From an uncultured Actinomycetota bacterium (GTDB lineage Bacteria > Actinomycetota > Acidimicrobiia > Spongiisociales > UBA4744), in contig CAVQVN010000009.1 in assembly GCA_963717135.1 (NCBI GenBank), forward strand, positions 632,269 through 696,268: a DNA stretch of 64,000 nucleotides, in the 5' to 3' direction. The first letter of the stretch is position 1; each line of letters starts with the position of its first letter. Below, piece by piece: positions 7,843-56,741 of the stretch. The position numbers and the translations under genes are program-made. The notes under the pieces are model-generated. The model saw only the letters and a program-made list of their open reading frames with translations, did no database searches and was not told the origin of the DNA.

Positions 7843-7850
7843 ATCGCTTG

Positions 7851-7875
7851 CCTCCGGCAAGGACGTTCCCGGAGG
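7851..7875. terminator. Hairpin (cctccgg-N11-ccggagg) between the convergent usp-like and MFS genes
   Basis: 7-bp perfect inverted repeat seen directly. Terminator role inferred. Confidence 0.4.
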
Positions 7876-7901
7876 TGCCCCGGACCAAGCGTGGAGATCG
7901 T

Positions 7902-23953: not shown

Positions 23954-23971
23954 GCGACCTATCAAGAACAG
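23954..23971. promoter_or_regulatory. Motif CGACCTATCAAGAACA (half-site-like) ~50 bp upstream of amidase start; near-identical copy at 56391-56408
   Basis: Seen directly. Function unknown. Confidence 0.3.
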
Positions 23972-30122: not shown

Positions 30123-31457
30123 ATGAGTAGACGCAAGGTAATCATCATCGGAGCCGCCGGCCGCGACTTCCACAATTTCAACACTCGCTATCGCGACGAC
30201 GAGTCGGTCGAAGTCGTGGCTTTCACCGCCGAGCAGATCCCGGGAATCGAGGGCCGCACGTACCCCGCCGAGCTGGCCGGACCGCTCTATCCGGGCGGCA
30301 TCCGGATCTACGCCGAAGAGGAGCTACCCCGCCTCATCGATGAGCTGGACGTGGATGAGTGTGCGTTCTCCTACAGCGACGTCTCCTACCAGCACGTGAT
30401 GGGGGTCTCGGCCATCGTTCAAGCCGCCGGAGCGTCCTTCACGCTGCTCGGACCCGGCGATACTCAGATCAAGAGCATCAAACCGGTGATCTCGGTATGC
30501 GCCATCCGGACCGGCTCGGGCAAGTCCCAGACCTCGCGCAAAGTCGTCGAGACGCTGATGGCCAAGGGCCTCAAGGTGGTCGCCATCCGCCATCCCATGC
30601 CCTACGGAGATCTCTCTGCCCAGAAGGTTCAACGCTTCGCCGAGCTGGCCGACCTCGAGAAGCATGATTGCACCATCGAGGAGATGGAGGAGTACGAGCC
30701 GCACATCGTGCGCGGCAACGTCATCTACGCGGGTGTGGACTACGAAGCCATCATCCGGGCTGCCGAGACCGACCCGGATGGCTGCGATGTCATAGTGTGG
30801 GACGGCGGAAACAACGACTTCTCGTTTTACCAAGCCGACCTGGCCATCACCGTCGTCGATCCGCACCGACCCGGCCATGAGCTTCGCTACTACCCCGGTG
30901 AGGTCAACCTCCGCACCGCCGATGTCGTCGTGATCAACAAGATCGATTCGGCCGATCTGGCCGGAATCGAAACCGTGCGCCGCAACATCGCCAAGGTCAA
31001 CCCAACCGCCAGGGTGATCGATGCTGCGTCAACGCTGCGACTCGAAGACCCCTCGGTGGTAGCCGGCCGGCGGGTGCTGGCGATCGAAGACGGGCCGACT
31101 CTGACTCACGGAGAGATGAAGATCGGCGCCGCGGTGGTGGCCGCCACCAAGTACGGAGCGACCGAATTCGTTGATCCCCGCCCGTTCCTGGTCGGGAAGC
31201 TGAAGGAGACCTTCGAGATCTACCCCAACATCGGAACGATCCTGCCGGCCATGGGCTACGGCGAAGAGCAGCTTCGTGACCTCGAAGCAACCATCAACGC
31301 CGCCGATTGTGACGCCGTCGTGATCGGCACTCCGATCGATCTTGCCCGGATTGTGCACATCGAAAAGCCCCACACGCGCGTGTTCTACGATCTGCAGGAA
31401 ATTGGCGAGCCGACTCTGACCGGTGTGCTCGAGGACTTCGTCGCCAAACTGGGATAA
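30123..31457 (+). CDS. P-loop-containing protein resembling the cyclic 2,3-diphosphoglycerate synthetase (cPGS) family (assignment tentative)
   Basis: 444 aa from ATG 30123 (AGGAGGG RBS). N-terminal KVIIIGAAGRDFHNFN Rossmann-like segment and P-loop-like AIRTGSGKSQTS. The family is recalled from memory, not verified. Confidence 0.55.
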   Translation: MSRRKVIIIGAAGRDFHNFNTRYRDDESVEVVAFTAEQIPGIEGRTYPAELAGPLYPGGIRIYAEEELPRLIDELDVDECAFSYSDVSYQHVMGVSAIVQAAGASFTLLGPGDTQIKSIKPVISVCAIRTGSGKSQTSRKVVETLMAKGLKVVAIRHPMPYGDLSAQKVQRFAELADLEKHDCTIEEMEEYEPHIVRGNVIYAGVDYEAIIRAAETDPDGCDVIVWDGGNNDFSFYQADLAITVVDPHRPGHELRYYPGEVNLRTADVVVINKIDSADLAGIETVRRNIAKVNPTARVIDAASTLRLEDPSVVAGRRVLAIEDGPTLTHGEMKIGAAVVAATKYGATEFVDPRPFLVGKLKETFEIYPNIGTILPAMGYGEEQLRDLEATINAADCDAVVIGTPIDLARIVHIEKPHTRVFYDLQEIGEPTLTGVLEDFVAKLG

Positions 31458-31527
31458 CGTGAACCAGGTTGGTCGGTGGACCGTCGCCGGCCAACCTCTT
31501 GGTCGAGACAACAGATGGAGGGGTGAC

Positions 31528-33339: not shown

Positions 33340-33376
33340 TTGTCGAACTCGTAGCTCATAGCTCGCAGCTCCCGGC
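33340..33376. repeat. Short tandem heptamers (ttgtcgaactcg tagctca tagctcg cagctcc) in a 37-nt convergent intergenic spacer
   Basis: Seen directly. Shares the TTGTCGAAC(A)CTCG core with 9834-9865. Confidence 0.35.
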
Positions 33377-35311: not shown

Positions 35312-36813
35312 CCGGCAGCCCATGAGTCGTAGAGATGAACCTCCACCTCGGCTCCCTCCGCGTATCCCTCCAGACCGGCCGGAACCACCACAAACCCGGA
35401 CGCCCGGGTCACCGAGGACAGAACCGACGCTCCCGAGATGGCGAGAGGACGAACCCCGTCGCCCTCGATCTGGACCCGGGCGTAGTCGGTACGGCCAATC
35501 TGCGACACCAGACGTTTGGCAAGGGGCAGGCGGCGGGAGAGGTACGGCCACGCTTCCGGCAGCCCGCCCAACCTCCGGATGACCGGTCCCGCAAAGAAGT
35601 CGTATGCCACCAAACAGGAGACCGGATTGCCCGGCAGGATCAGCACCGGCCGGCCACCGATCCTTCCCACCCCGGTCGGCGAGGAGGGTCGCATGGCCAC
35701 CCCGTGGATAACCAACTCGCCCAGCTCGTCCACCAGCACGGGAACACGATCTTCGGCACCTACCGAGGCCGCCCCGGCGGTCAAAATGACGTCTGTTCCG
35801 GAGCGAGCGAGCGCCTCGCGCATCGCCTCCTGATTGTCGGGGAGCCGCACGACTTCGGCCTGCCCCCCGTCCCGCTCGATCAAGGCGGCCAACATCGGCG
35901 AGTTGCTATCAACGATGCTGGTGCCGTGCGGCTGTTCGCCGGGAGCCACCAGCTCGTTGCCCGAGACGATCACCAGTACCAGCGGTCGCCGAACCACCGA
36001 AACCGGATGATGTCCGATCGATGCCAGCAAGCCAACGTCCTGGGGCAAGAGCCGGCGCCCGTCGGTGAGCGCGAGGTCGCCGATCTCGATGTCCTCGCCG
36101 ATCCGCCCGACATTCCGATCCCGAGCGACCGGAGCCCGGACCTCGACAATTCGATCCCTTTCGGTCGTATCCTCGGCCCGCAGGACCGCATCTGCTCCTT
36201 GGGGCAGCGGGGCGCCGGTCATGATCCGCATCGACGAGCCCCGCTCCACCGAGATGTCGGGCGTAGACCCGGGAAGGGACTCGCCGATCACCGTCAGGTG
36301 TACCGGCGAATAGGCCGAAGCCCCATAGGTGTCGTCGGCCTGCACGGCATAGCCGTCCATGGTGGCCCGGCGAAAGGCCGGGACGGCCACCCGGCTGATC
36401 ACGTCGCCTGCCAGAACCCGGCCGGCCGCCTCCCCGACCGGGACCGTTTCCGGGGGAAGTCGTTGGACTCCGGCCAGAGCGGCGCTCCGGGCTTCCCCCA
36501 CGGTGGCCCGGTGTCGGAACCCGCGCATCCGAACGTCTTCGGCTCCACCGACGACATTGATGATCACCTCGAGCCGATCGTCCGGTCCGACCGACGTGCC
36601 GGCCTGAACATCCCGCAACACCTGGCGACCGTTGTGGAATAGGGACAGGTGGGCATGCAGGAGACCGTCGGTATCGAACAGGCGAAGCTCCAGGTCTGGA
36701 TGCGCGGCGGTCGCCGCCCGGAGGGCCGCCGTGACCGTCGGGGCGTCCACCTCGAGGTATTCATAACCCGATGCATACTTGCGCAGCAGCTTGGGAAGAC
36801 GCACGGTCACCAT
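35308..36813 (-). CDS. MoaD/ThiS-like β-grasp domain fused in-frame to MoeA (molybdopterin metal-transferase)
   Basis: N-terminal ~85 aa (MVTVRLPKLL…VIINVVGG) is MoaD-like, including the Gly-Gly. It continues without a stop into MoeA blocks (FRRATMDGYAV, …LTAGAASVGAEDRV…, GNPVSC). Start at 36813 or 36822 (uncertain). Confidence 0.75.
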   Translation of the reverse strand: MVTVRLPKLLRKYASGYEYLEVDAPTVTAALRAATAAHPDLELRLFDTDGLLHAHLSLFHNGRQVLRDVQAGTSVGPDDRLEVIINVVGGAEDVRMRGFRHRATVGEARSAALAGVQRLPPETVPVGEAAGRVLAGDVISRVAVPAFRRATMDGYAVQADDTYGASAYSPVHLTVIGESLPGSTPDISVERGSSMRIMTGAPLPQGADAVLRAEDTTERDRIVEVRAPVARDRNVGRIGEDIEIGDLALTDGRRLLPQDVGLLASIGHHPVSVVRRPLVLVIVSGNELVAPGEQPHGTSIVDSNSPMLAALIERDGGQAEVVRLPDNQEAMREALARSGTDVILTAGAASVGAEDRVPVLVDELGELVIHGVAMRPSSPTGVGRIGGRPVLILPGNPVSCLVAYDFFAGPVIRRLGGLPEAWPYLSRRLPLAKRLVSQIGRTDYARVQIEGDGVRPLAISGASVLSSVTRASGFVVVPAGLEGYAEGAEVEVHLYDSWAAG

Positions 36814-36823
36814 GCCGGGCATC

Positions 36824-37390
36824 CTACGAGGAGCGTCGCGCGATTCGCCGGGCATACAGAGCGCCACCGGCGCGCCACATCGCCCACCCCAGCATTCCGC
36901 CGGCGGCGCCAAAGACGAGATGGTTGGCCAGGGCGCCCAGAAAGCCGAATACCTCGACGCGCCGCAGTATGTCGGAGATCCAGGCGTTGGCGAACACAAA
37001 TCCAAACTTGGCGAGGTGGATGACGACCCCGGCCAAGGATGCTCCCCACAGGCGTCGCATGGGCAGACGCAGCAGCGTCCCGGAGTCCAGGAGGCTTCCG
37101 GCCAGGCCGTACAGCATCATGTTGTAGCCAATCGAATGGCCCACGCCGATCGGGACTCCCCACAGTCCCATCGAAAGCCCGGCCACCGTGGCCATTCCGG
37201 CGCGCCCGTTGAGCAGACGGCCGGAAACCAGCACGGCAATCCACCCGACCCCGGCGTGGCCCGGGATGCCCAGGTGGAAGTCCAGATATCTTTTGGCGAG
37301 GGTTGCCACCAAGCCGACGGCCACTGCCAGGACCAGGTCGACCGAAAGCGATCGCGGCCGGGTTGATCTACTTCGAGCGAGTGTCTGCAT
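36824..37390 (-). CDS. Hypothetical integral membrane protein
   Basis: 188 aa, 5-6 predicted hydrophobic helices. Located inside the AOR-2 / moeA operon. No family recognised. Confidence 0.45.
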   Translation of the reverse strand: MQTLARSRSTRPRSLSVDLVLAVAVGLVATLAKRYLDFHLGIPGHAGVGWIAVLVSGRLLNGRAGMATVAGLSMGLWGVPIGVGHSIGYNMMLYGLAGSLLDSGTLLRLPMRRLWGASLAGVVIHLAKFGFVFANAWISDILRRVEVFGFLGALANHLVFGAAGGMLGWAMWRAGGALYARRIARRSS

Positions 37391-38096
37391 TGACCCACAT
37401 CTCCTCGAAGCGTCGCACCACCAGCACCGGCCGGCCGCCCATCAGCCGGGGCCTCACCCAATCTCCCAGATCGAGCCGGCCGGCGGGAGCCAGTGGGGTT
37501 TTCTCCTCAAAATCGACGACATCTGCGATGGCCGTCCGGTCGAGTAATTCGGCGACCGACATAAGCCCGGCTACCCGGCGGATCCCCGGTAGGTCCACGA
37601 ACCGACCATCGTCGCCGTCGAGGCGGAGCGCCATTGCCCCCAGCGCGCCGATCACCCCGTCTTCCGTTCCGCCCAGGCCGGCCAGGTCGGTCGCCCAGGC
37701 GGCCCCGTGAACCCGTGCCTCAGCCTGTCCAACCAATCCCCGCTGTGCCCGGCGGGCAAACTCGACCAAATCGGTGGAGGCCGGCCAGGCTCCGATGGCC
37801 ACCCCGGGGTCGGACCCGTCAATCGACTCTCTGGTCACGATGGCGCAGGCCGTCTCGAAGAGTCCGGCCGCCGAGGTCACGCCGGTGAAGGCGACCGCCG
37901 CCGCCGAATTGCGAGCCGTCTTCGGCACACCCGGACCCTCGTAGAACTGGTGCCTGGTCACGCCGGCAGATCGGCCGAGGTTGAGTGCCTCGATCTCGGC
38001 GGCCAGACGGCGGGCCAGACGACCGGTGCCGCCGATGCCCGGCATGTCGGTGTCATCGATCCCGACGACCCAGGTGTCAGGGGATGCTGATCTCAC
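37368..38096 (-). CDS. Hypothetical protein with N-terminal VVGIDDTD…GGTG motif (possibly related to the TiaS/DUF1743 kinase-like domain)
   Basis: 242 aa. Operon context is the only support for coding. The motif resemblance is recalled from memory and weak. Confidence 0.45.
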   Translation of the reverse strand: MRSASPDTWVVGIDDTDMPGIGGTGRLARRLAAEIEALNLGRSAGVTRHQFYEGPGVPKTARNSAAAVAFTGVTSAAGLFETACAIVTRESIDGSDPGVAIGAWPASTDLVEFARRAQRGLVGQAEARVHGAAWATDLAGLGGTEDGVIGALGAMALRLDGDDGRFVDLPGIRRVAGLMSVAELLDRTAIADVVDFEEKTPLAPAGRLDLGDWVRPRLMGGRPVLVVRRFEEMWVNADTRSK

Positions 38097-38508
38097 CGAC
38101 GTCCCTCACCCATTGCTCACGCGGGAGATCTGCGGTGGCCAGTTTGAGTGTGCCCTGTTTGGTGACGTCGAGGATCCACCCGTCATCGACCTGCGTGGAA
38201 GTGATTTCGAGGGTGACTTCAACGACGCGCCCCTCCCCCATGCCGAACACCTCGGCCGTGTCCCACTCTTCCACGTCGGAGGCAGCGAGCACGTCGAGGA
38301 GCCGCGGTCCGGATTGATCGTCCCCGTCGATCGTCATCGAAACGAACTCGACCTGGCTTTCCAGATCGGCCAGTGTCCAGTCGCCCACCACCTTCCCGGC
38401 CAACACGACCCGCAGGACGACGTCATCGGCCGGTGGTTCGGTCGCGTCGGTCGCACACCCGGCCATGACGACCATCGCCACCACCACCACCACCCAGATC
38501 CGCTTCAC
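38077..38508 (-). CDS. Hypothetical small lipoprotein
   Basis: A GTG start at 38508 overlaps the AOR-2 stop (GTGA). The N-terminus VKRIWVVVVVAMVVMAGC… is a lipoprotein signal peptide. The listed ORF's extra 123 N-terminal aa are Arg-rich out-of-frame overlap with AOR-2. Confidence 0.45.
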   Translation of the reverse strand: MKRIWVVVVVAMVVMAGCATDATEPPADDVVLRVVLAGKVVGDWTLADLESQVEFVSMTIDGDDQSGPRLLDVLAASDVEEWDTAEVFGMGEGRVVEVTLEITSTQVDDGWILDVTKQGTLKLATADLPREQWVRDVGEISIP

Positions 38509-40462
38509 AGGGCCAGCTCCGGCTTGAGCCAACCGAGACCCAGCGCCTCGAGCGTCTCCGCTGTTGGGTTGCCGCCGACCGGATCCCAACCCGCCATCTC
38601 GTAATAGGTTTCGAGGGCGGCCTCGAACTCGGCCCGGTCGACGACCTTGCCGTTGCTGGGGCCGCCGTCGAGCGGTTCGAACAATCGCTTGGGGAGCGTG
38701 TCCCGCTCGCGAGTGATACCTTCCCGAGCGTTGAAAGCCCGCAGCATGTTGAGACGGCGGGCGCCGATGGTGAGCAAATCGGCCACGGTGGTTTCCTCGC
38801 CGGTCACGGCGGTGATCACACCGGCCAGTTCCTCCATCCCCAGCAGTTGCCAGGCCGGTCCGAACACGAACTGGCATACGTCTGCGGTGTCCATCGCCGA
38901 ATACGCATACTGGGTCTTCAAGGCGTACTCCACTTTTCCGGCGTTGAGGACCTCCTCGGGCTGCGGATTGGTGAGGCCGAGGTCGGCCGCTCGTTTGCCG
39001 TACTTCTCGGGCGAGTCGGCAATCAACTCGGGTGTGTAGTTGGGGTCGTGTTCGCTGGATTGATGGTCGGCTCCGAACGGGTTGACCGCGTAGATCAAAG
39101 CCAGGGAAGGTTTGACCTGCGGCATGTGGGCCGGGAGTTCTTCACCCTTCACCGCCACGACCAGATCCTCAGCGCCGTTGCCGAGGTGAGCGCCGGCCCG
39201 GGCAGACCCTTCCGCCAGGACGTCACCGAATCCGTCCCGGATGAGGGTCTTCTCCAGCATGGCGATCATTGCCTCGGCTTTCCCCCACCCCAGTTCGATT
39301 CCTCCGGTGTCATCCGAATTGATCAGACCTTCTTCGTAGCAGTTGATGGCGAAGGCCATCGTGGCTCCGGCCGCGATGGTGTCGACCCCGTATTGATTGC
39401 ATAGCTGATTGGCATAGGCGATGGCATGAATGTCGTCGATGTCGCAGTACGAACCAAAGACGGAGGAAGTCTCGTATTCCTGACCGCCCGACTTGGGATC
39501 GATCTTCCGGCCCTGCCATTCGGCGTCGACGACCCGCTTGCAACGGACCGCGCAGGAATAGCAAGTCTCTCGACCCAGCTTCATCTGGTCGTCTTCATCC
39601 GCGCCGCGCAGCAGTTCTTTGAATAGGCGTTCCCCACCGATGGCGGCCGCCCGGTCGTAGCCCATCCACCCGCTCTGATAGTTGCGGGTGGGAAGCCCTC
39701 CGTTGGCATTCTGACTTTCGAGAATCCCGAGGGTTCCGTGCTTGGCGAGATCCCATACGTCTGGGTCTTCTTTGATTGCCGGGATCGAGGGCTGCATGAT
39801 GGCCCGGACGCCCTCCGGATCGGCCATGCCCAGCTTTCGTTTGCCCCGCGAACCACGATCGCTTTGAGCTTCTTGCTGCCCATCACCGCACCCATGCCGG
39901 TGCGCCCGTGGGCCCGGGTCGCCATATTCATGATGGCCGCGAACCGGACGAGGTTCTCCCCGGCGGGGCCCACCTGCGCAACCTGAATGCGATGGTCCCC
40001 GAGTTCCTTCTGCAACATCTCCTCGGTCTCCAGGGTCATCTTGCCCCACAGATGGGAGGCGTCGCGTAGTTCCACCTCGCCCTGATTGATCCAGAGATAG
40101 ACCGGGGTAGGAGAGATTCCTCGCACCACGATCCCGTCGAATCCCGCGAATTTCAGCTCGGCCGGCCAGAATCCCCCGGCCTGGCTGTCACCCACCCCCC
40201 CGGTCATCGGGGATTTGGCGACCACAGTCGCCCGGCTCTGCCCGGCGATCGGCGCTCCGGTGATCCCGGACAGCATGAATGCCAGCGTGTTGTCGGGCCC
40301 GTAAGGATCCGCCCCGGCCGGGGTGTTCTTGAGCAAGTAGTAGAGGCCGAGGGCGCTGCCGCCCATGTACGTCCGGTACAGCTCCTCGGGTGGTTCCTCG
40401 ATGTCGAGCGAACCCGTCGTCAGGTCAACATGAAGGATCTTGCCAGCGTAGCCGTGAAGCAT
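38505..40462 (-). pseudogene. Aldehyde:ferredoxin oxidoreductase (AOR) family gene, copy 2, interrupted by a single frameshift near 39844-39847
   Basis: The N-terminal 215 aa (ORF 39581..40462: …RAHGRTGMGAVMGSKKLKAIVVRG) and the C-terminal ~440 aa (ORF 38505..40049: KRKLGMADPEG… and AOR C-domain blocks) are in different frames. They join at a C4 (plus strand) / G4 homopolymer. Confidence 0.75.
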
Positions 40463-40595
40463 TGAGCCTCCCTGGGCGATTATTCCGGCATCCTACCGGG
40501 ATTATCTCCCCCCGGGATTCTCGAACGAGGAGGAATCAATCGATTTGAAGCGCCGCCGAAATATGGGGGGGTCGCCGCATCGATAGCCACTCTGA

Positions 40596-40611
40596 CCTAT
40601 CATTCGATAGG
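40596..40611. promoter_or_regulatory. AmtR-box-like palindrome CCTATC-ATTC-GATAGG (copy 4) between the AOR-2 operon and divergent CoA-transferase gene
   Basis: Seen directly. 32 bp upstream of the CoA-transferase ATG. An additional GATAGC half-site lies at ~40581. Confidence 0.6.
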
Positions 40612-40642
40612 TCATCTCGGGACGACACACGATGCCAGGAAT

Positions 40643-41803
40643 ATGAACACCCTCCCGCTCGCCGGAATCTTGGTTGCGGATTTTTCCCGCATCATGGCGG
40701 GACCCCTGGTAACCCAAATTCTGGCGGACCTGGGCGCCAGGGTCATCAAGGTCGAACGGCCCGGATCGGGAGATGACACGCGCTCGTGGGGGCCTCCGTT
40801 TCGCGGTGATCTGGCGACCTATTTCGCGTCGGTCAACCGCGGCAAAGAGTCGATCGCCCTCGATTTGGGAGACCCTGCAGATCAGGAGTTGGCTTGCCGG
40901 TTGGCGCTCCGGGCGGACGTGGTCGTAGAGAACTTCAGGCCCGGCTTGGTGGATCGGTTCGGTCTCGGATACGACCGGCTCGTAGAGCGGAACCCGGGAT
41001 TGGTCTATTGCTCTATTTCGGCATTTGGCCGAGAAGGAGACCAAGCCGGGATGCCGGGGGTCGATCTTCTCATCCAGGCGATGGCCGGTTGGATGCACGT
41101 CACCGGCCAACCCGAGGGGCCACCAACCAAGGTCGGCATGGCAATGGTGGACGTAATCGCCGGTTTGTTCGCCACCTCCGGGGTTCTCGCCGCGTTGTTC
41201 CAACGGGTTTCCACCGGAGGGCGGGGCCAGCACGTCCACGTTTCGTTATTCGAGGCTGCTCTCGCCGGGCTGGTCAACCTGGCATCGGGATATCTTCTCA
41301 CCGGCGACGATCCTCATCGAAACGGGAATCGCCATCCGTCAATCGCTCCATATGAATTGTTCCACGCGGCAGACCGCCCTTTCGTCCTGGCGGCCGTTAA
41401 CGACTCCCTGTTCGCCCGGACCTGCGAAGTGATCGGCAAGCCGGAATTGACCACCGACCCCCGCTTTCGCACCAATCCACTCCGACGGACCAACATCGAA
41501 GCGTTGGTTCGGCAACTCGAGCCGGTGTTCCAGACCAGACCGGCCGCGGAGTGGATCGAGATTCTGGGCGCTGCTCGAGTTCCGGCGGGGCCGGTCAACA
41601 CGGTGGCCGAGGCATTCCGGCTGGCCGACGCTCTGGGAATCGACATGGTGGCCGAGGACCCGGCTGGTAACCGGGGTCTGCGAACCCCCATCCAACTATC
41701 CGGATCGGAACGGAAGGCAGCACCGCAACCGGCCGAACTTGATGGCGACGCAGAGCCAATCCGCCGGTGGCTCAGCCAGCTTGACGAGTCGTCGCCCGAA
41801 TAA
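40643..41803 (+). CDS. CoA-transferase family III (CaiB/BaiF) protein
   Basis: 386 aa. N-terminal LAGILVADFSRIMAGP…LADLGARVIKVE and catalytic Asp region (…AMAGW…). Confidence 0.9.
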   Translation: MNTLPLAGILVADFSRIMAGPLVTQILADLGARVIKVERPGSGDDTRSWGPPFRGDLATYFASVNRGKESIALDLGDPADQELACRLALRADVVVENFRPGLVDRFGLGYDRLVERNPGLVYCSISAFGREGDQAGMPGVDLLIQAMAGWMHVTGQPEGPPTKVGMAMVDVIAGLFATSGVLAALFQRVSTGGRGQHVHVSLFEAALAGLVNLASGYLLTGDDPHRNGNRHPSIAPYELFHAADRPFVLAAVNDSLFARTCEVIGKPELTTDPRFRTNPLRRTNIEALVRQLEPVFQTRPAAEWIEILGAARVPAGPVNTVAEAFRLADALGIDMVAEDPAGNRGLRTPIQLSGSERKAAPQPAELDGDAEPIRRWLSQLDESSPE

Positions 41804-41849
41804 GGAGACCGGGTCCCGGGCGGAGCCCCGGCTTGATTCCCCGGCGCCG

Positions 41850-42032
41850 CTACTTTTTCAGTGAGTTGAAGAGGGCCAAGGTGGGGAGCCCGAATGCGAG
41901 CGCCGCGGCCACCAGGCTCACCGCTCCCGCTACGGCTTCCGTCTCCGCATTGAACGCGAAGATAACGGCAACCCACCCGGTCAGCATGCTGCTCAGAATC
42001 AAGAACCAGAGGACGGTGCTGATCGATCTCAA
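41850..42032 (-). CDS. Putative small membrane protein (60 aa, TTG start)
   Basis: Two hydrophobic helices. AAAAAGGAG RBS 5 nt upstream of TTG 42032. Immediately downstream of the oxyanion SBP gene. The longer listed ORF (to 42227) overlaps that gene. Confidence 0.3.
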   Translation of the reverse strand: MRSISTVLWFLILSSMLTGWVAVIFAFNAETEAVAGAVSLVAAALAFGLPTLALFNSLKK

Positions 42033-42108
42033 GGATGCTCCTTTTTGTTGGCTGAACGGTACACCGTAAACGCCGCTCGCGGCGGCAGGCGGCAGCCCTT
42101 CCGAGCAG

Positions 42109-42903
42109 TCAGGATCCCGCCGGCTGGTAGACCGGCCGGCCAAACAAGGTGCTGTTGACCGAGACGATCGCCTGGCGGCCTTCCTCCGACAGCAACCAGG
42201 CGGCGAACCCATCCGCCGCCGATTCAACCTCCGATCCGCTCACTACGGTGATCTGGTACGGGTTGGTCAATACGCGGTCTTCGAGCAGGGGAATCTCCTC
42301 GAGCGAGAGGGAAGGTCCCGCGGCCAGAAAGACTCCGAGTTCGCAGAGTACGAAAGCCGAGCGCTGGTCGGCTACCTGCAGGGTCAAACCCATCCCCTGT
42401 CCGGTCTCGATATACCACTCCGCACCGCGTGGATCGACACCGGCCGCCTCCCACAGATCCATCTCTTTCTGATGGGTCCCCGATCCGTCGGACCTGCTCA
42501 CAAACAAGTCGCCCCGGGCGGCAATACCTGCCAGAGCGTCCCCGACCGACATGGGTTTCCCGAGGTCGGATGCCGGCGGACCGGCCAGAACGAAACGGCT
42601 GACCAGCACGGGCTCATAGCGAGCGGCCCGGCCTTCGGCCACAAACTCGGCTTCGAGGTCGGGGGCGTGGGTGATGAGCAAATCGGCTGCGCCCCTCCTG
42701 GCCAGGTCGAGCACCCGGGCCGTCGATTCGCCGACCACACTCAATTCAATCCCGGGGTGCTCCGCTTCGTACTGAGCGGTCAGCTCGTCGATGATGCCGC
42801 TGTCGACCAGAGTCGTGCCGGCGGCCACGATCACCCGGACCGGTCCGGCACAGGCACCCAGGGTCAGGGTCGCTGCCAACCCGATGAGACCGAATCGCTT
42901 CAT
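42109..42903 (-). CDS. Tungstate/molybdate ABC transporter substrate-binding lipoprotein (TupA/ModA-like)
   Basis: Start ATG 42903 (MKRFGLIGLAATLTLGACAG lipobox; ATGA overlap with the ATPase stop). PBP type-2 fold of ModA/TupA size. Confidence 0.75.
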   Translation of the reverse strand: MKRFGLIGLAATLTLGACAGPVRVIVAAGTTLVDSGIIDELTAQYEAEHPGIELSVVGESTARVLDLARRGAADLLITHAPDLEAEFVAEGRAARYEPVLVSRFVLAGPPASDLGKPMSVGDALAGIAARGDLFVSRSDGSGTHQKEMDLWEAAGVDPRGAEWYIETGQGMGLTLQVADQRSAFVLCELGVFLAAGPSLSLEEIPLLEDRVLTNPYQITVVSGSEVESAADGFAAWLLSEEGRQAIVSVNSTLFGRPVYQPAGS

Positions 42904-43901
42904 CGAGGGATTACCCGCACCGCGGCGGCTTTCACCGTCAGCGTCACCGCCGCCCCGGGGGCCAGTTGGAGCGCTTCGCGAGAGCCCGGGGTGATGAGGG
43001 CGGCAATTGGCGAACCGGCGTCCACGATCACCTCGGTCAGCCGACCCGCCTCGCGGAGCGCCTCCACCCGCCCCGGCCACCGGTTGCGGGCCGACCCGGC
43101 GGTCGCATCGTGACCCGCGAACAACGTGACGGCCTCGGCCCCGAACAGCACTCGAGCCGCACTTCCCTCGGCCAAATCCCCGATCCCCCACACGTGCAGT
43201 GATCCCACCATGACCGAGCTGAGAGAGTCTTCAGAGACTCCGGCGATACCGTCCAGCACATTGGCCACGCCCACCGCCCTGGCAACGCGATCGTCCACCG
43301 GGAGCGAGAAGACTTCGGCCACCGGGCCTTCCTGAACAATGGTCCCGTCCACCATCACCGCCATCCGTTCGCCCAGCACCGCGGCCTCCTCCCGGTCGTG
43401 GGTGACGACGATCGCCCCCTTGCCGTTCAAGCTGCCCACCAGTGCGGCAGCGACATCCAGGCGGTCGGCGACGTCCAGGGCGGCCAGCGGTTCGTCGAGC
43501 AGCACCCACGGTTCCGGACGGGCCAGGGTGCGGGCGAGGGAGAGACGCTGACGCTCGCCACCGCTGAGGGCGCGGGCCGGTTCCAGATACACGTCAGGAT
43601 CCAATCCGAACCGGTCGGCCAGCGTCCGGGCCCACACGGTTTGCTCATGATCGAGACCCAGCCCGAGATTCCATCCTGCCGATCCCCGGAATACATGCGA
43701 GTGTTGCGGCTGGTAGGCGGTCTTGATGGATGGTCCGCCGGGCAAGATTCCGGCGAGGACCCGCAACAGGGTGGTCTTCCCGGCGCCGTTCGGGCCGAAG
43801 ATGACGAGACGTCCACCGGCCTCGACGGACAACCGCTCCACCGAGATGATCGAGCCATCTGCCGGGTACCGGAGGTTCTGAACGACCAGGGAATCCATCA
43901 G
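42900..43901 (-). CDS. Tungstate/molybdate ABC transporter ATP-binding protein with C-terminal TOBE/MOP domain
   Basis: Start ATG 43901 (ATGA overlap with the permease stop). Walker A GPNGAGKTT, LSGGERQRL, and a C-terminal transport-associated OB domain. Confidence 0.85.
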   Translation of the reverse strand: MMDSLVVQNLRYPADGSIISVERLSVEAGGRLVIFGPNGAGKTTLLRVLAGILPGGPSIKTAYQPQHSHVFRGSAGWNLGLGLDHEQTVWARTLADRFGLDPDVYLEPARALSGGERQRLSLARTLARPEPWVLLDEPLAALDVADRLDVAAALVGSLNGKGAIVVTHDREEAAVLGERMAVMVDGTIVQEGPVAEVFSLPVDDRVARAVGVANVLDGIAGVSEDSLSSVMVGSLHVWGIGDLAEGSAARVLFGAEAVTLFAGHDATAGSARNRWPGRVEALREAGRLTEVIVDAGSPIAALITPGSREALQLAPGAAVTLTVKAAAVRVIPR

Positions 43902-44596
43902 TTGCCCCGCTCTCTCAACTGCAGCCAGGTCAAGGCCCCGTTGATCACCAGGGCCAGAGCCATCAGCACGATGCCCAGGGCGAGGGCGGTGCCAAATTGG
44001 GCCTGGCGGGCTTCCTGGACGATGGCGGTCGTCAGGACTCTCGTCTCTCCCCGGATGTTCCCACCGACCACCAGGACGGCCCCCACCTCCGACACCACCC
44101 GTCCGAAGGCGGCCGCCACTGCGGCCGCCACTCCCGGCCAGGCTTCCCGCAGGGCAATCCATCCGGTGGCCGGGCGGCTCAACCCCAGAGCGGACAACTG
44201 TTCACGGGCCACCGGCGAAAGGCCCCCGACCGCTCCGGCCGTGACCCCGGCGGCGATCGGAATCGCCAGAAGCGACTGGGCGAGCACCATCGCCTGCGGC
44301 GTGAATAGCATGCCCCAGGAACCCAGCGGACCATCCGACCACAACAGGAGCAAGATCAGCAACCCGGCCAGCACCGGGGGAATGCCCATCCCCGTGTTGA
44401 CCGCCACCAGCAGGGGGGTTCGGCCACGGAATTTGCCCAGCCCCAGAGCCGCTCCCAGCGGCACGCCAATGACGACTCCCAATGCAGTCGCGATCAGCGA
44501 CACCAGCAGCGTCAGCCACAACACGTCCTGTAACTCGGAACCAAACCGAGCGAGGATCTCAAGGGCCTCGCGAACAACCTCGCCGATGAAAGACAT
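43898..44596 (-). CDS. Tungstate/molybdate ABC transporter permease
   Basis: Start ATG 44596 (MSFIGEVVREALE…). Five TM helices and an EAA-type loop. Confidence 0.8.
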   Translation of the reverse strand: MSFIGEVVREALEILARFGSELQDVLWLTLLVSLIATALGVVIGVPLGAALGLGKFRGRTPLLVAVNTGMGIPPVLAGLLILLLLWSDGPLGSWGMLFTPQAMVLAQSLLAIPIAAGVTAGAVGGLSPVAREQLSALGLSRPATGWIALREAWPGVAAAVAAAFGRVVSEVGAVLVVGGNIRGETRVLTTAIVQEARQAQFGTALALGIVLMALALVINGALTWLQLRERGN

Positions 44597-48627: not shown

Positions 48628-48999
48628 GTGCGGCCCGCATCAACCCTCGACCCACCTTGCGCTCTGCGCGCCGCGATCCTGAGGCATAATCGCCTCCTTG
48701 TGCATCGCCCGTCCCTCGGAGTCATCTCTCTCATCTTGATCGTTGGTGGCGCGGTCCTCATGGCCCGGCCTCCCAACGGGGATCCTTATCTCGGCGCCGT
48801 GTCGGTCCGGGCCGGCCTGGTACTGGGTGCCCTTTGGCTGGCTCTTCCCAACATCCGGCGGGCACCGCTCTGGCTGCTGTACGCGGTCGGTGTGCTGGCC
48901 GTGGTGCTCATCCTTCGACCCCGCCTGCTTCTCTACTCGCTACCGGTCGCAGCCGTTGTCGCGTTCCTGGGAGCCACCTCAAAGAAGCAACGCAATTAG
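48628..48999 (+). CDS. Hypothetical small membrane protein
   Basis: Three hydrophobic segments. Start unresolved (ATG 48628, a GTG near 48700, or ATG 48763). No RBS seen. Confidence 0.3.
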   Translation: MRPASTLDPPCALRAAILRHNRLLVHRPSLGVISLILIVGGAVLMARPPNGDPYLGAVSVRAGLVLGALWLALPNIRRAPLWLLYAVGVLAVVLILRPRLLLYSLPVAAVVAFLGATSKKQRN

Positions 49000-49047
49000 C
49001 GGGAAGCTTAAGGGTTGTGGCTTGATCCTCGATGCCCGTCGGGTCCG

Positions 49048-49850
49048 GGAGGCTCCACCGTCTGGCCGGGTGGGTGTTCTTTTGGATCGAGGGAACGATC
49101 CAAACTTCGCGGCCGGGCTGTTCGTGAGCCTCTCCCGCCGGCGGGAGAGGCGGGCCGCTGATAGTCCCCCTGCTAGGGGGGAAAGTACCGTCGCCGGTAG
49201 GCGAGGGTAGGGGGTCAGGCGGCGGAGCGGAGAGGGTGACTCTTCTCGGATAGTGGACGGGGGACCGCGGATAGCTGCTGGCTGCTTGATGGTTGTTGCT
49301 TGATGCTTGTTGGTCTTCTCTGGTCGGGGAGGCTCCACCGTCTGGTCGGATGGGTGTTCTTTTGCATCGAGGGAACGAGCGCCCGCCGCCGGTTGCTTCG
49401 GCCTCTCCCGCCGGCGGGAGAGGCGCGCCGCTGATAGTCCCCCTGCTAGGGGGAAAGTACCGTCGCCGGTAGGCGAGGGTAGGGGGTCAGGCGGCGGAGC
49501 GGAGAGGGTGACTCTTCTCGGACAGCGGACCGCGGACAGCTGTTTGTTGCTTGATGCTTTTTACTTGTTGGTCTTCTCTGCTCTGGAAGGTTTCGCCGTC
49601 TCGTCGGATGGGTGTTCTTTCACATCGAGGGAACAATCCAACTCGGTGGTCCGGACGGTCGAGAACCTCTCCCGCCGGCGGAAGAGGCGCGCCGCTGATA
49701 GTCCCCCTGCCAGGGGGAAGGTACCGTCGCCGATAGGCGAGGGTAGGGGGTCAGGCGGCGGTGCGGAGAGGGTGGTTATTCTCGGACCGCAAACCGCGGA
49801 TAGCTGCTGTTTGTTGTGGGTTGCTGTGGCTTGTTGGGGGTTTTCTTGTC
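49048..49850. repeat. Three tandem copies of a ~250-280-bp GC-rich unit (units begin ~49048, ~49328, ~49585), each carrying the nested palindromes cctctcccgccggcgggagagg and ccccctgc(t/c)aggggg
   Basis: Direct comparison of the three blocks: long identical runs (…ccgctgatagtccccctgctagggggaaagtaccgtcgccggtaggcgagggtagggggtcaggcggcgg…). Not coding by inspection. Confidence 0.8.
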
Positions 49851-49874
49851 ACACCCGGACGGTATGTTCAGGTT

Positions 49875-50995
49875 ATGGAAACGCTCGATATGGGCTCGGT
49901 CACCACCGACCAGCTCGAACAAGTACTCCTAGCGGGAGAAGCCCAAGTGGCTCGAATAAGAGCCACCCAAATGCGGTTACTAGCCGAGCTGGACCGTCGG
50001 CAGGTCCCCATCTCCGACGGGGCCCGCACTATGGCCGAGTGGGTGGCCGCCCGCCTGGATGTGACCCCTGAAACCGCTCAGAAGCTCACCCAAACCGCCG
50101 TCCGTCTCATCGACCAGCCCTCTCTGGCGGAAGACCTCGAGGGCGGTCGGGTTTCCTTTGATCGGATAGTTGAAGAGTCCCGCCTGGTTTCCTCGGGGGC
50201 TTCTTCTGAGCTGGTAGCCCAGTCCCGCGGTTGGGATCTGGTCGGGATGCGGCGGATGGTGGCCCGCCACCAACCGATCAGCCGCTCAGGCGAACAAGAC
50301 CTGTTCTCGGGTCGGTTCCTCTCCATCCAACCCACCTTGGATCAAACCTCCTACAAACTATGGGGACAGTTCCCCGGGATCGACGGCCAACTCATCGAAC
50401 AAGCCCTCACCACCCGAGCCGACCAATACCCGCCCCTCCCCAACGGCCGGCGGTGTGCCCGAACCCAACGCCAAGCCGACGCGCTGGTCTCCATCGCCCA
50501 AGACTCCCTCGACCAAACCCCCACCGCCAGCCCCCACGTCAGCCCCGCTGGTGTCGATCTTCCTCGACGCCCACCAAGCCGCTACTTCTAACGGGGAAAC
50601 CGGAGCCACTATCGCTACCGGACCCCGGAGTAGGGCCGCTCACCTTGGAACAGATCCTCTGCGACGGTCAAGTCGAAATCCTTATGACCTCCCCTAATGG
50701 CAACCCCCTCACGGTCGGACCGACCGCCCGCACCATCCCCCCCAAACTGAGAAGATTCATCCTCCACCGCGACGGGGGTATGTGCACCATCGCCGGGTGC
50801 CGGTCCCGCTACCGGCTCCAACCCCACCACATCACCCCCCGCAGCCAAGGCGGAACCCACCACCCCTCAAACCTCACCACCCTCTGCTGGTACCACCATC
50901 ATGTGGTCATCCACCGCCACGGCCACCAAATCGACCCCCACTCCCCACCCCAACGACGACGCTTCCTCAAACCCCAAACCCGCCCACCACCCTGA
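49875..50995 (+). pseudogene. DUF222-HNH endonuclease (13E12-repeat-like family) with two closely spaced frameshifts
   Basis: The DUF222 N-part is in frame 0 (METLDMGSVTTDQLEQVLLAGEAQVARIRA… to ~50565). A short stretch (…GETGATIATGP…) is in a second frame. The HNH part (GPLTLEQILCDGQVE…CTIAGCRSRYRLQPHHITPRSQGGTHHPSNLTTLCWYHHHVVIH) is in the third frame, ending at 50995. Confidence 0.7.
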
Positions 50996-51131
50996 GCTGC
51001 ATGCCAGCAGCTTCAGCCTCCACATCCTTCACCGACAAACGACCAACCAAGAAACCGGGCCGCAGGCAACTTCGACGTCGGCTCAGCGCCGGCCTTAGCC
51101 GCGTTCGACGAATCGCTACGAGGCGAAACGG

Positions 51132-51515
51132 CTAGATCCCGTTGGCGATGACACCACAACAGATGGCGATTGCCAACGAAACGGGACCCCAGATACGTTC
51201 GATCTTGGATCGTGAGGCGAAGTTCCCAAGAGCGCCGATGGTGAACAACCCGGCCAAGATCCACATCACTGTTTTGCCGGTCCCGGGCAACCATTCGGCC
51301 GCGATCAAATCCGACGAAACGAGCACAAAAAGGATGACCAGCGGATATACCAAGACACCCGCCAGGCCACTGGAAATCCGAAGCCGGTCGGGTAGCACGC
51401 CCTCATGTTGGCCACCCCAAGCCGCTTTCCCTAATGGAGCGCCGAGTGATAGCGCTACCTGAAACACCGCTACCACTGCGAGCAATACGACCGCGACGAT
51501 CGCTGCAACTTCCAT
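51132..51515 (-). CDS. Hypothetical membrane protein (4 TM)
   Basis: 127 aa, strongly hydrophobic. No family recognised. Confidence 0.4.
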   Translation of the reverse strand: MEVAAIVAVVLLAVVAVFQVALSLGAPLGKAAWGGQHEGVLPDRLRISSGLAGVLVYPLVILFVLVSSDLIAAEWLPGTGKTVMWILAGLFTIGALGNFASRSKIERIWGPVSLAIAICCGVIANGI

Positions 51516-51615
51516 AGACCCATAGTAGAAAGCCGCCGCCCAAACTCGGACCGTGTTCTAAGCATCGGCCCCTCACCTGCATGGGGAAAGCGAGTAGGTC
51601 CACTCCCGAGAAGGA

Positions 51616-53013: not shown

Positions 53014-54981
53014 GTGAAGCTCGTATTTGCCGCCCACTGCCATCAACCCCTCGGCAATATCGACGAAGTGGTCAAAGACGCATGCGATCGCGCGTATTTA
53101 CCCTTTCTCGAAGTCCTGGCCGCCCATCCGGCCATACGGGTCAATCTGCATTACTCGGGTTCGCTGCTCGAGTGGCTCGTCGAGCATCGACCGGAAGTTC
53201 TCGAGGTTCTGACCTCCCGGGGCGATCAAGTGGAGTGGATGAGCGGTGGGTTCTACGAGCCCATTCTCCCTTCGATCCCTCCCGAAGACGCCGCCGCCCA
53301 GATTGCGTTGCTCTCCGGGTTCATTCAGGATCGGTTCGGGCAGAATCCCCGGGGCGCCTGGCTCGCCGAACGGGTCTGGGATCCGAGCCTCTCATCGCTC
53401 CTCAACGATTCCGGGATTGAATACACCATCCTCGACGATTACGCCTTTCTACTCGCCGGGTACTTGCCAGACAGTCTGACCGGGAGCTACATCACAGATC
53501 ATCTGGGCAAGACGCTGACCATCTTCCCCATCGCCCAGGACCTTCGGTATGCGATTCCCGGAGCCGACCCCGAAGACGTTCTGGCCCTCCTCCGTGACCG
53601 TCACAACGATGATCCCCAGACGCTTGCGGTCATCGCCGACGATGGAGTGAGATTCGGGTTGTGGCCGGACAGCTACGAGCGGGTCTATCCGCCGGGTGGC
53701 TGGCTAGACGAATTCTTCACTCTGGTGGAGAGCGCCGATTGGCTGCAGATCACCACCTTCGCTCGGTACCTCGATGAGTACCCGGCGAGAAGCCGGGTGG
53801 CCCTACCGCCGGCCAGCTATCGGGAAATGAGCGAGTGGTCGATGCCGGCGGAAACAGCGCAGGCGATGATCCCAACGGACCCGGCACACGACCGGAACCC
53901 GAATTGGGTGGGCATAGAGGCCTTCATGCGAGGAGGTTGGTGGCCCAACTTCACGATCGAATATCCGGAAGCCGGAACCCTGTATCGGAAAATGCTTCGA
54001 GTCTCCAGTCACGTCGCGGCGAGCAAGGGACCGGCCGAAGCGCACACCGAAGTGCTCAAAGCCCAGGGCAACGACCCGTTCTGGCACGGCGTACTCGGGG
54101 GTTTGTACTCTCCCCATCTCCGCGCTGAAACCAATCGCCACCTCATCACCGCTCAAACGCTGATCGACGGCCACCACCATCGAGGCCGCTCATGGGTCTA
54201 TTTGCGCCGCATTGACTGGGATGCCGACGGCCGGGAGGAGATCGAGGTCGAAATCCCCGACCAGTCCTGGGTCTTAGACCCCGCCGAAGGAGGATCTCTC
54301 CTCTACTTCGACGACAAACCATCCCGCTGGTCGATCAGCGATGTGGTTGCTCGCCGTTATGAGCCCTACCACGCCGACCTGCCCGAGCCGCCAATCTACG
54401 ACCGCCACCCTCGCCGCTGGTTGACAGATCATCTTCTCCCGACCGTTGCCACCGTCGAGTCATTCGCCGATGTCTCCTATGTGGAGCTTCTGCCCCTCCC
54501 GGCAACCGAATACGTGACTCAGGAAACCACCGAAGGTCGAGGATCTGCCCGGATCGCGATGAGCGCTCTTGGCGGCAAGATCCTCAAGACGATTGATGCC
54601 GAGGACCGGGAGATGCGGATCGGCTACCGGGTATCCGACATACTGGCCGGACGTTTCGGACCGGAGATACCGGTTTCCGTATGGGAGGACGCCGGGCATA
54701 TCAGGGTCGACGGGGGCCCCTGGCAGCAGGTTGATCAACCGCTGGCCCTGGCCGGGCACCGTTTCCGTTTCCGCCATAGCGGAATCAAGACCTCGATCGT
54801 GGTCGTGCTGCGCCAGCCGGGTGAGCTGTTCTCTATTCCAATCCGAACCGTGACCAGAGGCGACGAAGGTTCGGAATCAATCCTGCAGGGAATTGTTCTG
54901 TGGCCCCACTGGTCGACGAGCGGGTATGGCAATTATGAGATGACCGTCGAGATCGTCGAGATGGCGGTTGAGCCCTCATGA
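53014..54981 (+). CDS. Glycoside hydrolase family 57 protein (α-glucan branching enzyme / amylase type)
   Basis: 655 aa. N-terminal AAHCHQPLGN (GH57 HxHQP motif) and a catalytic Glu/Asp region. 4-nt overlap with glgA. Confidence 0.85.
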   Translation: MKLVFAAHCHQPLGNIDEVVKDACDRAYLPFLEVLAAHPAIRVNLHYSGSLLEWLVEHRPEVLEVLTSRGDQVEWMSGGFYEPILPSIPPEDAAAQIALLSGFIQDRFGQNPRGAWLAERVWDPSLSSLLNDSGIEYTILDDYAFLLAGYLPDSLTGSYITDHLGKTLTIFPIAQDLRYAIPGADPEDVLALLRDRHNDDPQTLAVIADDGVRFGLWPDSYERVYPPGGWLDEFFTLVESADWLQITTFARYLDEYPARSRVALPPASYREMSEWSMPAETAQAMIPTDPAHDRNPNWVGIEAFMRGGWWPNFTIEYPEAGTLYRKMLRVSSHVAASKGPAEAHTEVLKAQGNDPFWHGVLGGLYSPHLRAETNRHLITAQTLIDGHHHRGRSWVYLRRIDWDADGREEIEVEIPDQSWVLDPAEGGSLLYFDDKPSRWSISDVVARRYEPYHADLPEPPIYDRHPRRWLTDHLLPTVATVESFADVSYVELLPLPATEYVTQETTEGRGSARIAMSALGGKILKTIDAEDREMRIGYRVSDILAGRFGPEIPVSVWEDAGHIRVDGGPWQQVDQPLALAGHRFRFRHSGIKTSIVVVLRQPGELFSIPIRTVTRGDEGSESILQGIVLWPHWSTSGYGNYEMTVEIVEMAVEPS

Positions 54982-56384
54982 AGCTTTTGATGGCAGCCGC
55001 GGAGTTTTCTCCCTTGGCCCGCACCGGCGGGATGGGAGAAGCAGTGGCGGGACTCGCCGCGGCTTTGGCTGATCAGGGCATTGAGGTCACAGTGGCCCTT
55101 CCCCGCTACCAGCATCTCCGCACAACCGGGGAACTCGACGACGGGCTGTCGATAGCCGCCTACCGCGCTCAACTGGCCGGCGTCGAGGTATTGCTCATCG
55201 ATGACGACGAGGCTTTCGATCGACCCGGCATCTACGGCCCGAAGCCCGGCACCGCCTATGGGGACGAGTGGTTTCGATGGGCTAGGTTCTCATCGGCCGT
55301 CGCCCGCCTGGCGGCCGATTTCGACCTCGTTCATCTTCACGACGGTCATGTCGGTCCGGTCGCCCTGCTCACCGACGTGCCGACGGTGCAAACGATTCAC
55401 AACGCTTCGTATCCACTGCTGGGCCCGCTGGCCGACGCCGCCGAAGAGCTCAACATCTCCTGGTCGGACCGGAGGTTGGGCGGTGCGCTCGAGTGGTACG
55501 GGCAAGCCAACTATCTCAAAGCCGGGATCGTCGGAGCCACCCGCGTCACGACGGTCAGTCCGACGTTCGCATCCCAGATCTCGGTTGATGACTCGGTCAC
55601 CGGCGGGTTGAGTGAGGTCATCAGGTGGCTCGAGCACCCGGTAGTCGGCATCGTGAACGGCATCGACACCAAGGCCTGGGATCCGAAGGGCGACCCGAGT
55701 CTGGCCGCTCCGTTTTCAGCCGGGAAGCTCAAACCTCGAGCCGAATCGCGCCACGCTCTGCTCGAGAAAGCCGGCCTCGATGATGGGTTCGTGACCGGCA
55801 ACGTGGGAAGAATGACCGAACAGAAGGGCCTTCACCTTATCGACGCGGACCTGAATCGCCTCGTGGAAGATGGCCTGCGAATGGTCCTCATCGGGAACGG
55901 CAATCTCGATGCGATGGTCGACGGTTGGGAACTGCGCCATGCGAGGGCCGTTCGCCACTTCGAATATTCCGAGGATTTGGCCCGCTTGTTGTTCGCCGGG
56001 GCCGACGCCTATTTCATGCCCTCCCAATTCGAGCCCTGCGGGATAGGTCAGCTCTACGCGATGCGCTACGGATGCCCGCCCCTCGCTCACCTCACCGGCG
56101 GCCTGGCAGACACAGTGGTCGATCTCGACGAACGGCCCGAGGAAGGAACCGGACTCGGGTTCCGCGGTTTTCTACCCGAAGAGGCGACCAAAACCATCCG
56201 TCGCGCCATGCGGATTCACCGAACCTCAAAGAAGGAGTGGAAGAAGCTGCAACGAAACGGAATGACTTCCGACTTCTCGTGGGATCATGCGGCTCGCCAA
56301 TACCTTCCGGTGTATGCGGCGGCTCTCGGGACTCCGATAGATCAGGCGGGGCTAAATCCTGTTTCTCCCCCATCCGACATTTGA
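54978..56384 (+). CDS. glgA: Glycogen synthase (GT5)
   Basis: 468 aa. AAEFSPLARTGGMGEAV (K/RTGGL-type motif) and a C-terminal GT-B domain. Confidence 0.9.
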   Translation: MKLLMAAAEFSPLARTGGMGEAVAGLAAALADQGIEVTVALPRYQHLRTTGELDDGLSIAAYRAQLAGVEVLLIDDDEAFDRPGIYGPKPGTAYGDEWFRWARFSSAVARLAADFDLVHLHDGHVGPVALLTDVPTVQTIHNASYPLLGPLADAAEELNISWSDRRLGGALEWYGQANYLKAGIVGATRVTTVSPTFASQISVDDSVTGGLSEVIRWLEHPVVGIVNGIDTKAWDPKGDPSLAAPFSAGKLKPRAESRHALLEKAGLDDGFVTGNVGRMTEQKGLHLIDADLNRLVEDGLRMVLIGNGNLDAMVDGWELRHARAVRHFEYSEDLARLLFAGADAYFMPSQFEPCGIGQLYAMRYGCPPLAHLTGGLADTVVDLDERPEEGTGLGFRGFLPEEATKTIRRAMRIHRTSKKEWKKLQRNGMTSDFSWDHAARQYLPVYAAALGTPIDQAGLNPVSPPSDI

Positions 56385-56390
56385 GCCTTT

Positions 56391-56408
56391 CGACCTATCA
56401 AGTACACC
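56391..56408. promoter_or_regulatory. Motif CGACCTATCAAGTACACC ~50 bp upstream of the flp-like gene (near-identical to 23954-23971)
   Basis: Seen directly. Confidence 0.3.
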
Positions 56409-56453
56409 GGAATCAGCACCGATAATGGTCGGGAGCGACGAGTGAGGAGTCAC

Positions 56454-56621
56454 ATGCTTCGGTTGCTCCGGATAGTGCACAATTTCCAGAACGGCGCCAG
56501 CCTCGTTGAGTACGGGCTTCTCGTCTTGTTGATTGCTCTGGTAGCCATTATGGCCGTAACGTTTGCCGGCAATCAGAATTCGTTGCTTTACAGCGAGATC
56601 GCCAGCGCGGTCAATCACTAG
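56454..56621 (+). CDS. flp: Flp/Fap-family type IVb pilin precursor
   Basis: 55 aa, not in the ORF track: MLRLLRIVHNFQNGASLVEYGLLVLLIALVAIMAVTFAGNQNSLLYSEIASAVNH. Classic Flp motif G-A-S-x-V-E-Y-G-L followed by a hydrophobic helix. GAGGAG RBS 6 nt upstream. Confidence 0.65.
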   Translation: MLRLLRIVHNFQNGASLVEYGLLVLLIALVAIMAVTFAGNQNSLLYSEIASAVNH

Positions 56622-56741
56622 CGCAACCGCCATTCAGAACGGACAGCGAACGGGCGGCGGCGTCTTCCTGTGACCTTCTCCCCTAGGCAGGCCCTCATAT
56701 TGGGTCCAGCATTGGTGGTACATCGAGAAGGGAGCCCGACC

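Follow-up and report, generated by a model that had tools for sequence, protein, structure and literature searches.

A conserved 55-codon gene for a predicted Flp-family prepilin holds a fixed position apart from tad genes in a clade of Acidimicrobiia

A short open reading frame (ORF) on the plus strand at 56454-56621 of the window (the whole 64,000-nt stretch of DNA analyzed here, from an uncultured Acidimicrobiia bacterium) is confirmed as a real, conserved protein-coding gene, and motif, profile and homology evidence supports placing its predicted product in the Flp/Tad (type IVc) pilin family. The gene, flp, is an orphan in the sense that it stands apart from tad genes, and this position is not peculiar to one genome: it is fixed across an Acidimicrobiia clade. 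The Flp-pilin annotation itself is already known, because near-identical orthologs carry it in public databases; mild novelty is confined to the orphan position, which is fixed throughout the clade and comes with a putative promoter footprint of its own, and to the existence of a second, separate orphan Flp group. In our judgment the gene probably encodes a genuine Flp-family prepilin that would be assembled by a Tad machine encoded elsewhere in the chromosome.

The flp frame runs from an ATG at 56454 to a TAG at 56619-56621 and specifies the 55-aa product MLRLLRIVHNFQNGASLVEYGLLVLLIALVAIMAVTFAGNQNSLLYSEIASAVNH, with GAGGAG 4 nt ahead of the ATG (Table 1), which bears out the 55-codon ORF with a strong RBS described in the first-pass annotation. 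The longest version that can be read mechanically begins at a GTG at 56442 and reaches 59 aa, and for this reason the gene is missing from the ORF track with its 60-aa cutoff, as that annotation had rightly stated. Its description of the gene as unannotated holds for its own ORF track and fails for public resources, where one 198-kb ENA contig and three Logan contigs carry a gene call for the exact protein beside the same neighbors, and where orthologs 85-93% identical are named "Flp family type IVb pilin" or "Flp pilus assembly pilin Flp" (NCBI, JGI). A single-sequence search with the flp product returned 30 homologs, 25/30 of them at 69-95% identity and nearly all exactly 55 aa long, and a search with the family profile matched more than 6000 PF04964 proteins.

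Table 1. Features of the flp locus in window coordinates
Feature	Position	Strand	Basis
glgA (glycogen synthase)	54978..56384	+	Pfam Glyco_transf_5, 1.4e-44; ends 69 nt upstream of flp
12-mer CGACCTATCAAG, putative -35 region or regulator site	56391..56402	+	nearly invariant in 12 orthologous loci
-10-like hexamer GATAAT, putative promoter element	56421..56426	+	CGATAA(T) kept in 12 orthologous loci, spacer diverged
RBS GAGGAG, 4 nt before ATG	56444..56449	+	invariant in 12 orthologous loci, surrounding spacer varies
flp CDS, 55-aa Flp-family prepilin (predicted)	56454..56621, stop included	+	ORF, orthologs, Pfam Flp_Fap match
Leader peptide, codons 1-14, MLRLLRIVHNFQNG, predicted removal after G14	56454..56495	+	G14 conservation, profile register
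Predicted mature pilin, 41 aa, ASLVEYGLLVLLIALVAIMAVTFAGNQNSLLYSEIASAVNH	56496..56618	+	E +5, Y +6, hydrophobic core
Dodecin gene, 72 aa	56742..56960	+	PF07311, 5.4e-22; 120 nt downstream of flp

Comparison of orthologs shows that flp is under purifying selection. In 12/12 orthologous loci, each from a different species-level genome, the frame is open and exactly 55 codons long, substitutions are biased toward the third codon position, and across the 66 pairs the median dN/dS is 0.14 at a mean dS of 0.77 (Nei-Gojobori). Constraint differs along the product, with a pN/pS of 0.10 over core residues 15-39, 0.37 in the tail, and 0.43 in the leader, on which selection is relaxed.

Flp pilins are defined as proteins of 50-80 aa with a G/XXXXEY motif followed by a hydrophobic stretch, cleaved by TadV after the Gly and carrying Glu at +5 and Tyr at +6 (PMC4322843; PMC3244431). 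At 55 aa the flp product lies within the size range of the Flp/Fap family (~50-80 aa), and it has Gly at -1, Glu at +5 and Tyr at +6 within the signature G14|A-S-L-V-E19-Y20, after which come about 20 hydrophobic residues (GLLVLLIALVAIMAVTFAG, residues 21-39). In an alignment of 31 homologs A15, L17, V18, Y20, L22, L23, L26-L29, A31 and G39 are invariant and G14, S16 and E19 nearly so (G14 and E19 in at least 90%), with Ala replacing Gly at position -1 in two clade members. Pfam Flp_Fap (PF04964) matches the product at E = 2.6e-5 and 24.3 bits, below its gathering threshold of 32.2, and NCBIfam gives it no match at all, so membership rests on further evidence. A PF04964 match is precomputed for most flp orthologs, and the pilin of a tad-linked relative (L027) scores 39.6 bits, above the Pfam threshold. 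Searched against PDB, the family profile matches solved Tad pilins (8u2b/8ucr, "Flp family type IVb pilin", E = 8e-7; 8u1k, PilA, E = 1.4e-6), and its positions 16-53 align with their mature residues 2-39, in register with the predicted cleavage site.

Homologs in tad loci point the same way. A protein 57% identical to the flp product, from a Gemmatimonadaceae MAG (P0027), is encoded by the second gene of a tad operon that opens with a pair of flp genes (flp-flp-Peptidase_A24-TadE-RcpC-Secretin-TadZ-T2SSE-T2SSF-T2SSF-TadG), and pilins of Microthrixaceae, Iamiaceae and other Acidimicrobiales that are 55-63% identical over the mature part adjoin RcpC-TadZ-TadA-TadB-TadC. Together with the motif, the match to solved pilins and a single-helix structure model, these relatives uphold the earlier reading of a Flp prepilin signature. 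Two other assignments were considered and rejected: a TadE/TadF pseudopilin (PF07811; ~150-190 aa), since the product is 55 aa long and has no PF07811 match at E up to 1, and an archaeal class III signal peptide protein (PF04021), which scores E = 0.39 and 11.2 bits vs. a cutoff of 23.7.

Cleavage after G14, by a prepilin peptidase of the TadV type, would split the prepilin into a leader of 14 aa and a pilin of 41 aa. We place A15 as mature residue 1 because profile position 16 aligns with mature residue 2 in 8u1k and 8u2b. The AlphaFold2 model is one continuous helix spanning residues 2-54, with a mean pLDDT of 84 that rises to 96-97 over residues 21-40.

Genes for flp are "almost always" found inside tad loci (PMC4322843), and this usual linkage is a feature that the window gene is without. 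As the first-pass annotation had it, flp lies between glgA and a dodecin gene; Pfam matches identify both, each on the flp strand, and glgA is preceded by a GH57 gene on the same strand. Across the 64-kb window no T2SSE, T2SSF, Peptidase_A24, TadE, RcpC or Secretin match was found by Pfam among all substantial ORFs (our own scans of ORFs of at least 150 aa, joined into pseudo-proteins, for 1-46.9 kb and leftover ORFs; public gene calls for 46.5-66.6 kb), and HMM and motif-regex scans of all six-frame ORFs of at least 25 aa revealed no second Flp-like or TadE-like ORF. The window instead holds housekeeping and metabolic genes only: gltX, an ilvE-like gene, a peptidase S9 gene, an Opp-type ABC system, amidohydrolases, agmatine deiminase, aminotransferases, two aldehyde:ferredoxin oxidoreductases, MoeA paralogs, a molybdate/tungstate-type ABC system, gatCAB, GH57, glgA, dapC/D/E, ligA and mnmA. 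These scans confirm the earlier remark that no tad machinery is visible in the window.

The same arrangement recurs across the clade. We read orthologous loci from ~12 related species, on contigs of 36 kb to 878 kb and including nine GTDB species-representative MAGs (L016-L024) and P0032; the order GH57-glgA-flp-dodecin-dapE-dapD is kept in every one of them, and none has a tad gene within 10 kb of flp. The claim that flp does not neighbor tadA/cpaF-like genes therefore stands for this genome and for its relatives. In P0032, the most divergent member looked up (70% identical), a short ORF follows flp with no dodecin match on record. On the 878-kb ENA/NCBI contig (L003), gatA (amidase) and GH57 are split into fragments (2795-4277 and 7397-8552); both are intact on a JGI contig of otherwise the same content, and frameshift errors in long reads explain the splits more readily than pseudogenes do.

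Between gatC and an Exo_endo_phos gene lies a segment of ~2.6 kb (48981-51615) that is missing at this place in L002, L018 and L024, different in L016 and partly common to L021. Within it, 2.8 copies of a ~264-nt unit form a tandem array (49046-49809) in which every unit bears a perfect 24-nt palindrome, GCCTCTCCCGCCGGCGGGAGAGGC, and an ORF at 50231-50995 (+) has a weak HNH endonuclease match. The segment has the look of an insertion hot-spot with variable content, or of a small element that is mobile or encodes RNA. Inside the third array unit, 49674-49814 (+) matches the Lysine riboswitch at 21.4 bits vs. a gathering score of 30 (E = 0.01), probably by chance, though the lysine-pathway genes dapC/D/E are 7 kb away. 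At the Rfam gathering threshold the window yields a single family, a tRNA gene at 155-227 (-; 65.5 bits). The genes clustered at 31423-44162 suggest an aldehyde metabolism that depends on tungsten or molybdenum: two code for aldehyde:ferredoxin oxidoreductases and two for MoeA paralogs, one of which is fused to a PBP-like domain, and the cluster also includes an ABC transporter of the molybdate/tungstate type with a TOBE domain.

Upstream of flp, short conserved blocks stand out from a spacer that varies in both sequence and length (69-114 nt between glgA and flp across orthologous loci). In the 12 loci the order is CGACCTATCAAG, 18-19 variable nt, CGATAAT, ~17-20 variable nt, GAGGAG, 4 nt and ATG, and the pattern of CGACCTATCAAG, spacer and GATAA is present upstream of flp in 15 loci. 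This footprint leads us to infer that flp has its own promoter. A scan for sigma-70 consensus promoters makes no call at the footprint because it has no canonical -35. No terminator-like structure lies between flp and glgA or between flp and the dodecin gene, and flp may be expressed by read-through from glgA. A second copy of CGACCTATCAAG occurs in the window at 23955-23966 (+), where chance would yield ~0.015 copies per window. The spacer that contains it separates a TetR-family gene from an amidase gene, whose start codon follows after ~61 nt; the distance from this copy to a -10-like hexamer is 18 nt, just as at flp. The 12-mer at flp and at the amidase gene may be a shared sigma-factor or regulator site.

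Tad machinery is present in the class Acidimicrobiia, in the form of the Acidimicrobiales tadZABC genes. A genome-collection scan with the Flp profile found the Acidimicrobiales tad loci in other genomes. The Acidimicrobiales tad locus lies between rpsA and coaE (L078, 7906-17307; L027, 640-9201) in the order RcpC-TadZ-TadA-TadB-TadC, two ORFs without a Pfam match, 2-4 convergent flp genes, a LuxR-type regulator and a GAF histidine kinase. Its TadB is ~650 aa long with a VWA domain at the N-terminus, and its TadA is unusually conserved (92-95% identical across families). There is no A24 peptidase in the locus. The tadV gene of Actinobacteria is as a rule found away from the other tad genes (PMC4322843), which makes scattered Tad genes normal in this phylum. 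We infer that tadA/B/C and tadV are present in the source genome; our literature search found nothing specific to Tad/Flp in Acidimicrobiia.

We propose the following path of assembly for the flp product. The 55-aa precursor would insert into the membrane, an unlinked TadV-type (A24, methyltransferase-less) aspartic prepilin peptidase would cut after G14, and the 41-aa mature helix, bearing E5 and Y6, would be polymerized into a thin Tad pilus by unlinked TadZ, TadA ATPase and TadB/TadC platform proteins. Such a pilus may serve surface attachment or biofilm formation, or DNA uptake as in Micrococcus luteus. The gene itself has become fixed in the Acidimicrobiia clade between glgA and the dodecin gene, probably as a stand-alone transcription unit.

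The searches for the assembly genes gave weak negatives. With the Acidimicrobiales TadA as query, the best 120 of 8000 database matches are all at least 86% identical; "CpaF family protein [Acidimicrobiales bacterium]" is among them, as is Rhabdothermincola salaria. By length, none of these 120 is on a known orphan-flp contig (878705, 505787, 379630, 198466, 139088, 120530 and 99843 nt), and a match on a 736-kb contig comes from a different sample. A chromosome-sized 4.37-Mb contig with an Acidimicrobiales-type TadA is absent among the matched orphan-flp contigs. The neighborhoods of eight Flp homologs, some on contigs of 0.65-1.03 Mb, showed only orphan contexts or other phyla, and extension beyond the window edges with window proteins reached only short Logan contigs. 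In the genome-collection scan, the nine species representatives of the clade have one Flp-pattern gene per MAG, a count to be read with the incompleteness of the MAGs and the requirement for an exact pattern (Y[GA]LLV[LS]LIAL, which did catch the second flp of tad-linked loci).

One alternative is that flp is a relic of the family or a repurposed peptide, with the Tad machinery lost or never linked, so that the product would function in the membrane as a small protein independent of Tad, perhaps in connection with its glycogen or dodecin neighbors or with a regulon marked by the upstream 12-mer. The orphan position, which persists throughout the 55-aa clade even at 70% identity, would fit such a role, as would the sharing of the 12-mer with the amidase gene, the single Flp-pattern gene per MAG, the lack of a same-contig TadA among the best 120 of 8000 matches even for the 878-kb contig, and the separateness of the 4.37-Mb TadA contig from the matched orphan-flp contigs. 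However, the features essential to a Tad pilin are precisely those under the strongest selection (Gly at -1, Glu at +5, Tyr at +6, and a hydrophobic core with a pN/pS of 0.10), the leader retains the length and charge of a prepilin leader, and the searches covered a small part of these genomes; we regard this alternative as unlikely. Quite unlikely, in our view, is a role as an accessory or alternative pilin, in which the tad locus would have its own flp gene(s) and the unlinked copy would supply a second, differently regulated subunit. Multiple pilins are common in the class, given the 2-4 tandem flp genes of Acidimicrobiales tad loci, and other Acidimicrobiia possess the other orphan Flp group (60-61 aa), yet the nine species representatives yielded one Flp per MAG, an argument weakened by MAG incompleteness and the exact pattern. 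We give similarly little credence to the possibility that the clade (at least nine species-level MAGs) is without Tad machinery, or at least without tadZABC of the Acidimicrobiales type, and that the flp product is matured and assembled by another, unrecognized system or has a pilus-independent role in the membrane. That flp is a chance ORF in GC-rich DNA, or that the antisense ORF 56352-56633 (93 aa) overlapping it is the true coding frame, is extremely improbable: GC-rich genomes do yield many long spurious ORFs on both strands and the product does score under the Pfam threshold, but the ortholog comparison (12 loci) rules this out, with 55 sense codons in 12/12, third-position bias and a dN/dS of 0.14 set against an antisense frame that is poorly conserved and has stop codons in 4/12 orthologs, and databases hold more than 6000 relatives. 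An RNA element in place of a gene was likewise rejected, as Rfam has no family near the ORF, the flp-dodecin spacer folds no more stably than shuffled sequence (z = 0.06) and no terminator was called.

The preferred reading, a prepilin gene unlinked from its assembly genes, has small significance beyond annotation hygiene, and the gene would gain interest only if Tad machinery proved to be missing from the clade. It illustrates that genuine pilin genes under strong conservation stay hidden at an ORF cutoff of 60 aa and that the capacity for a Tad pilus may go unnoticed when the pilin gene is remote from the assembly genes. In uncultured Acidimicrobiia of soil and sediment it may hint at surface attachment or DNA-uptake ability, and the stand-alone position with its promoter footprint would offer a handle on pilin regulation separate from the machine.

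Among known systems, the flp product resembles Caulobacter crescentus PilA and the solved Tad pilins (8u1k; 8u2b/8ucr) in being a short prepilin whose mature N-terminus (predicted for flp) has the form A-x-x-x-E-Y-G-L followed by a hydrophobic helix, and the mature sizes are similar (41 aa predicted here, 45 aa in the solved chains). Caulobacter pilA lies directly beside the cpa assembly genes, whereas flp is unlinked and its host is an actinobacterium. A further difference from Caulobacter is that the Acidimicrobiales tad loci examined are without a secretin.

A second orphan Flp group in Acidimicrobiia (L010, L012-L015, L056) shares with flp a housekeeping neighborhood and no tad genes within 10 kb. 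It is nevertheless a different orthologous group, ~45-57% identical to the window flp product, with a different length, leader and neighbors, and it was not found in the window. Members of this group, 60-61 aa long, also occur in other Actinomycetota. Their flp gene is at ~10001-10186 of the 20-kb loci. In every case a DivIVA-like gene of divergent orientation lies upstream of it, and in most cases a gene for an HtrA-like trypsin/PDZ protease follows; in one locus (L014) two ORFs without a Pfam match (274 and 346 aa) directly follow flp.

Within the phylum, the Flp of Micrococcus luteus (Angelov et al. 2015, PMC4322843) is likewise actinobacterial and has the G/XXXXEY motif. The M. luteus tad genes are split over separate loci with tadV unlinked, and this dispersed system is functional and can serve DNA uptake (PMC4322843). 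In contrast to the window gene, M. luteus flp sits inside one of two tad clusters.

The nearest relatives with visible machinery are the tad-linked pilins of Acidimicrobiales type, from Acidimicrobiales, Microthrixaceae and Iamiaceae (L025-L028, L034, L036, L078), which belong to the same class and share the motif GASLVEY(G/A)LLV at the identity over the mature part given above. Unlike the single flp of the window, their genes form tandem sets of 2-4 that are convergent with RcpC-TadZ-TadA-TadB-TadC, and their leaders are ~29-30 aa long vs. a predicted 14 aa in the window flp product.
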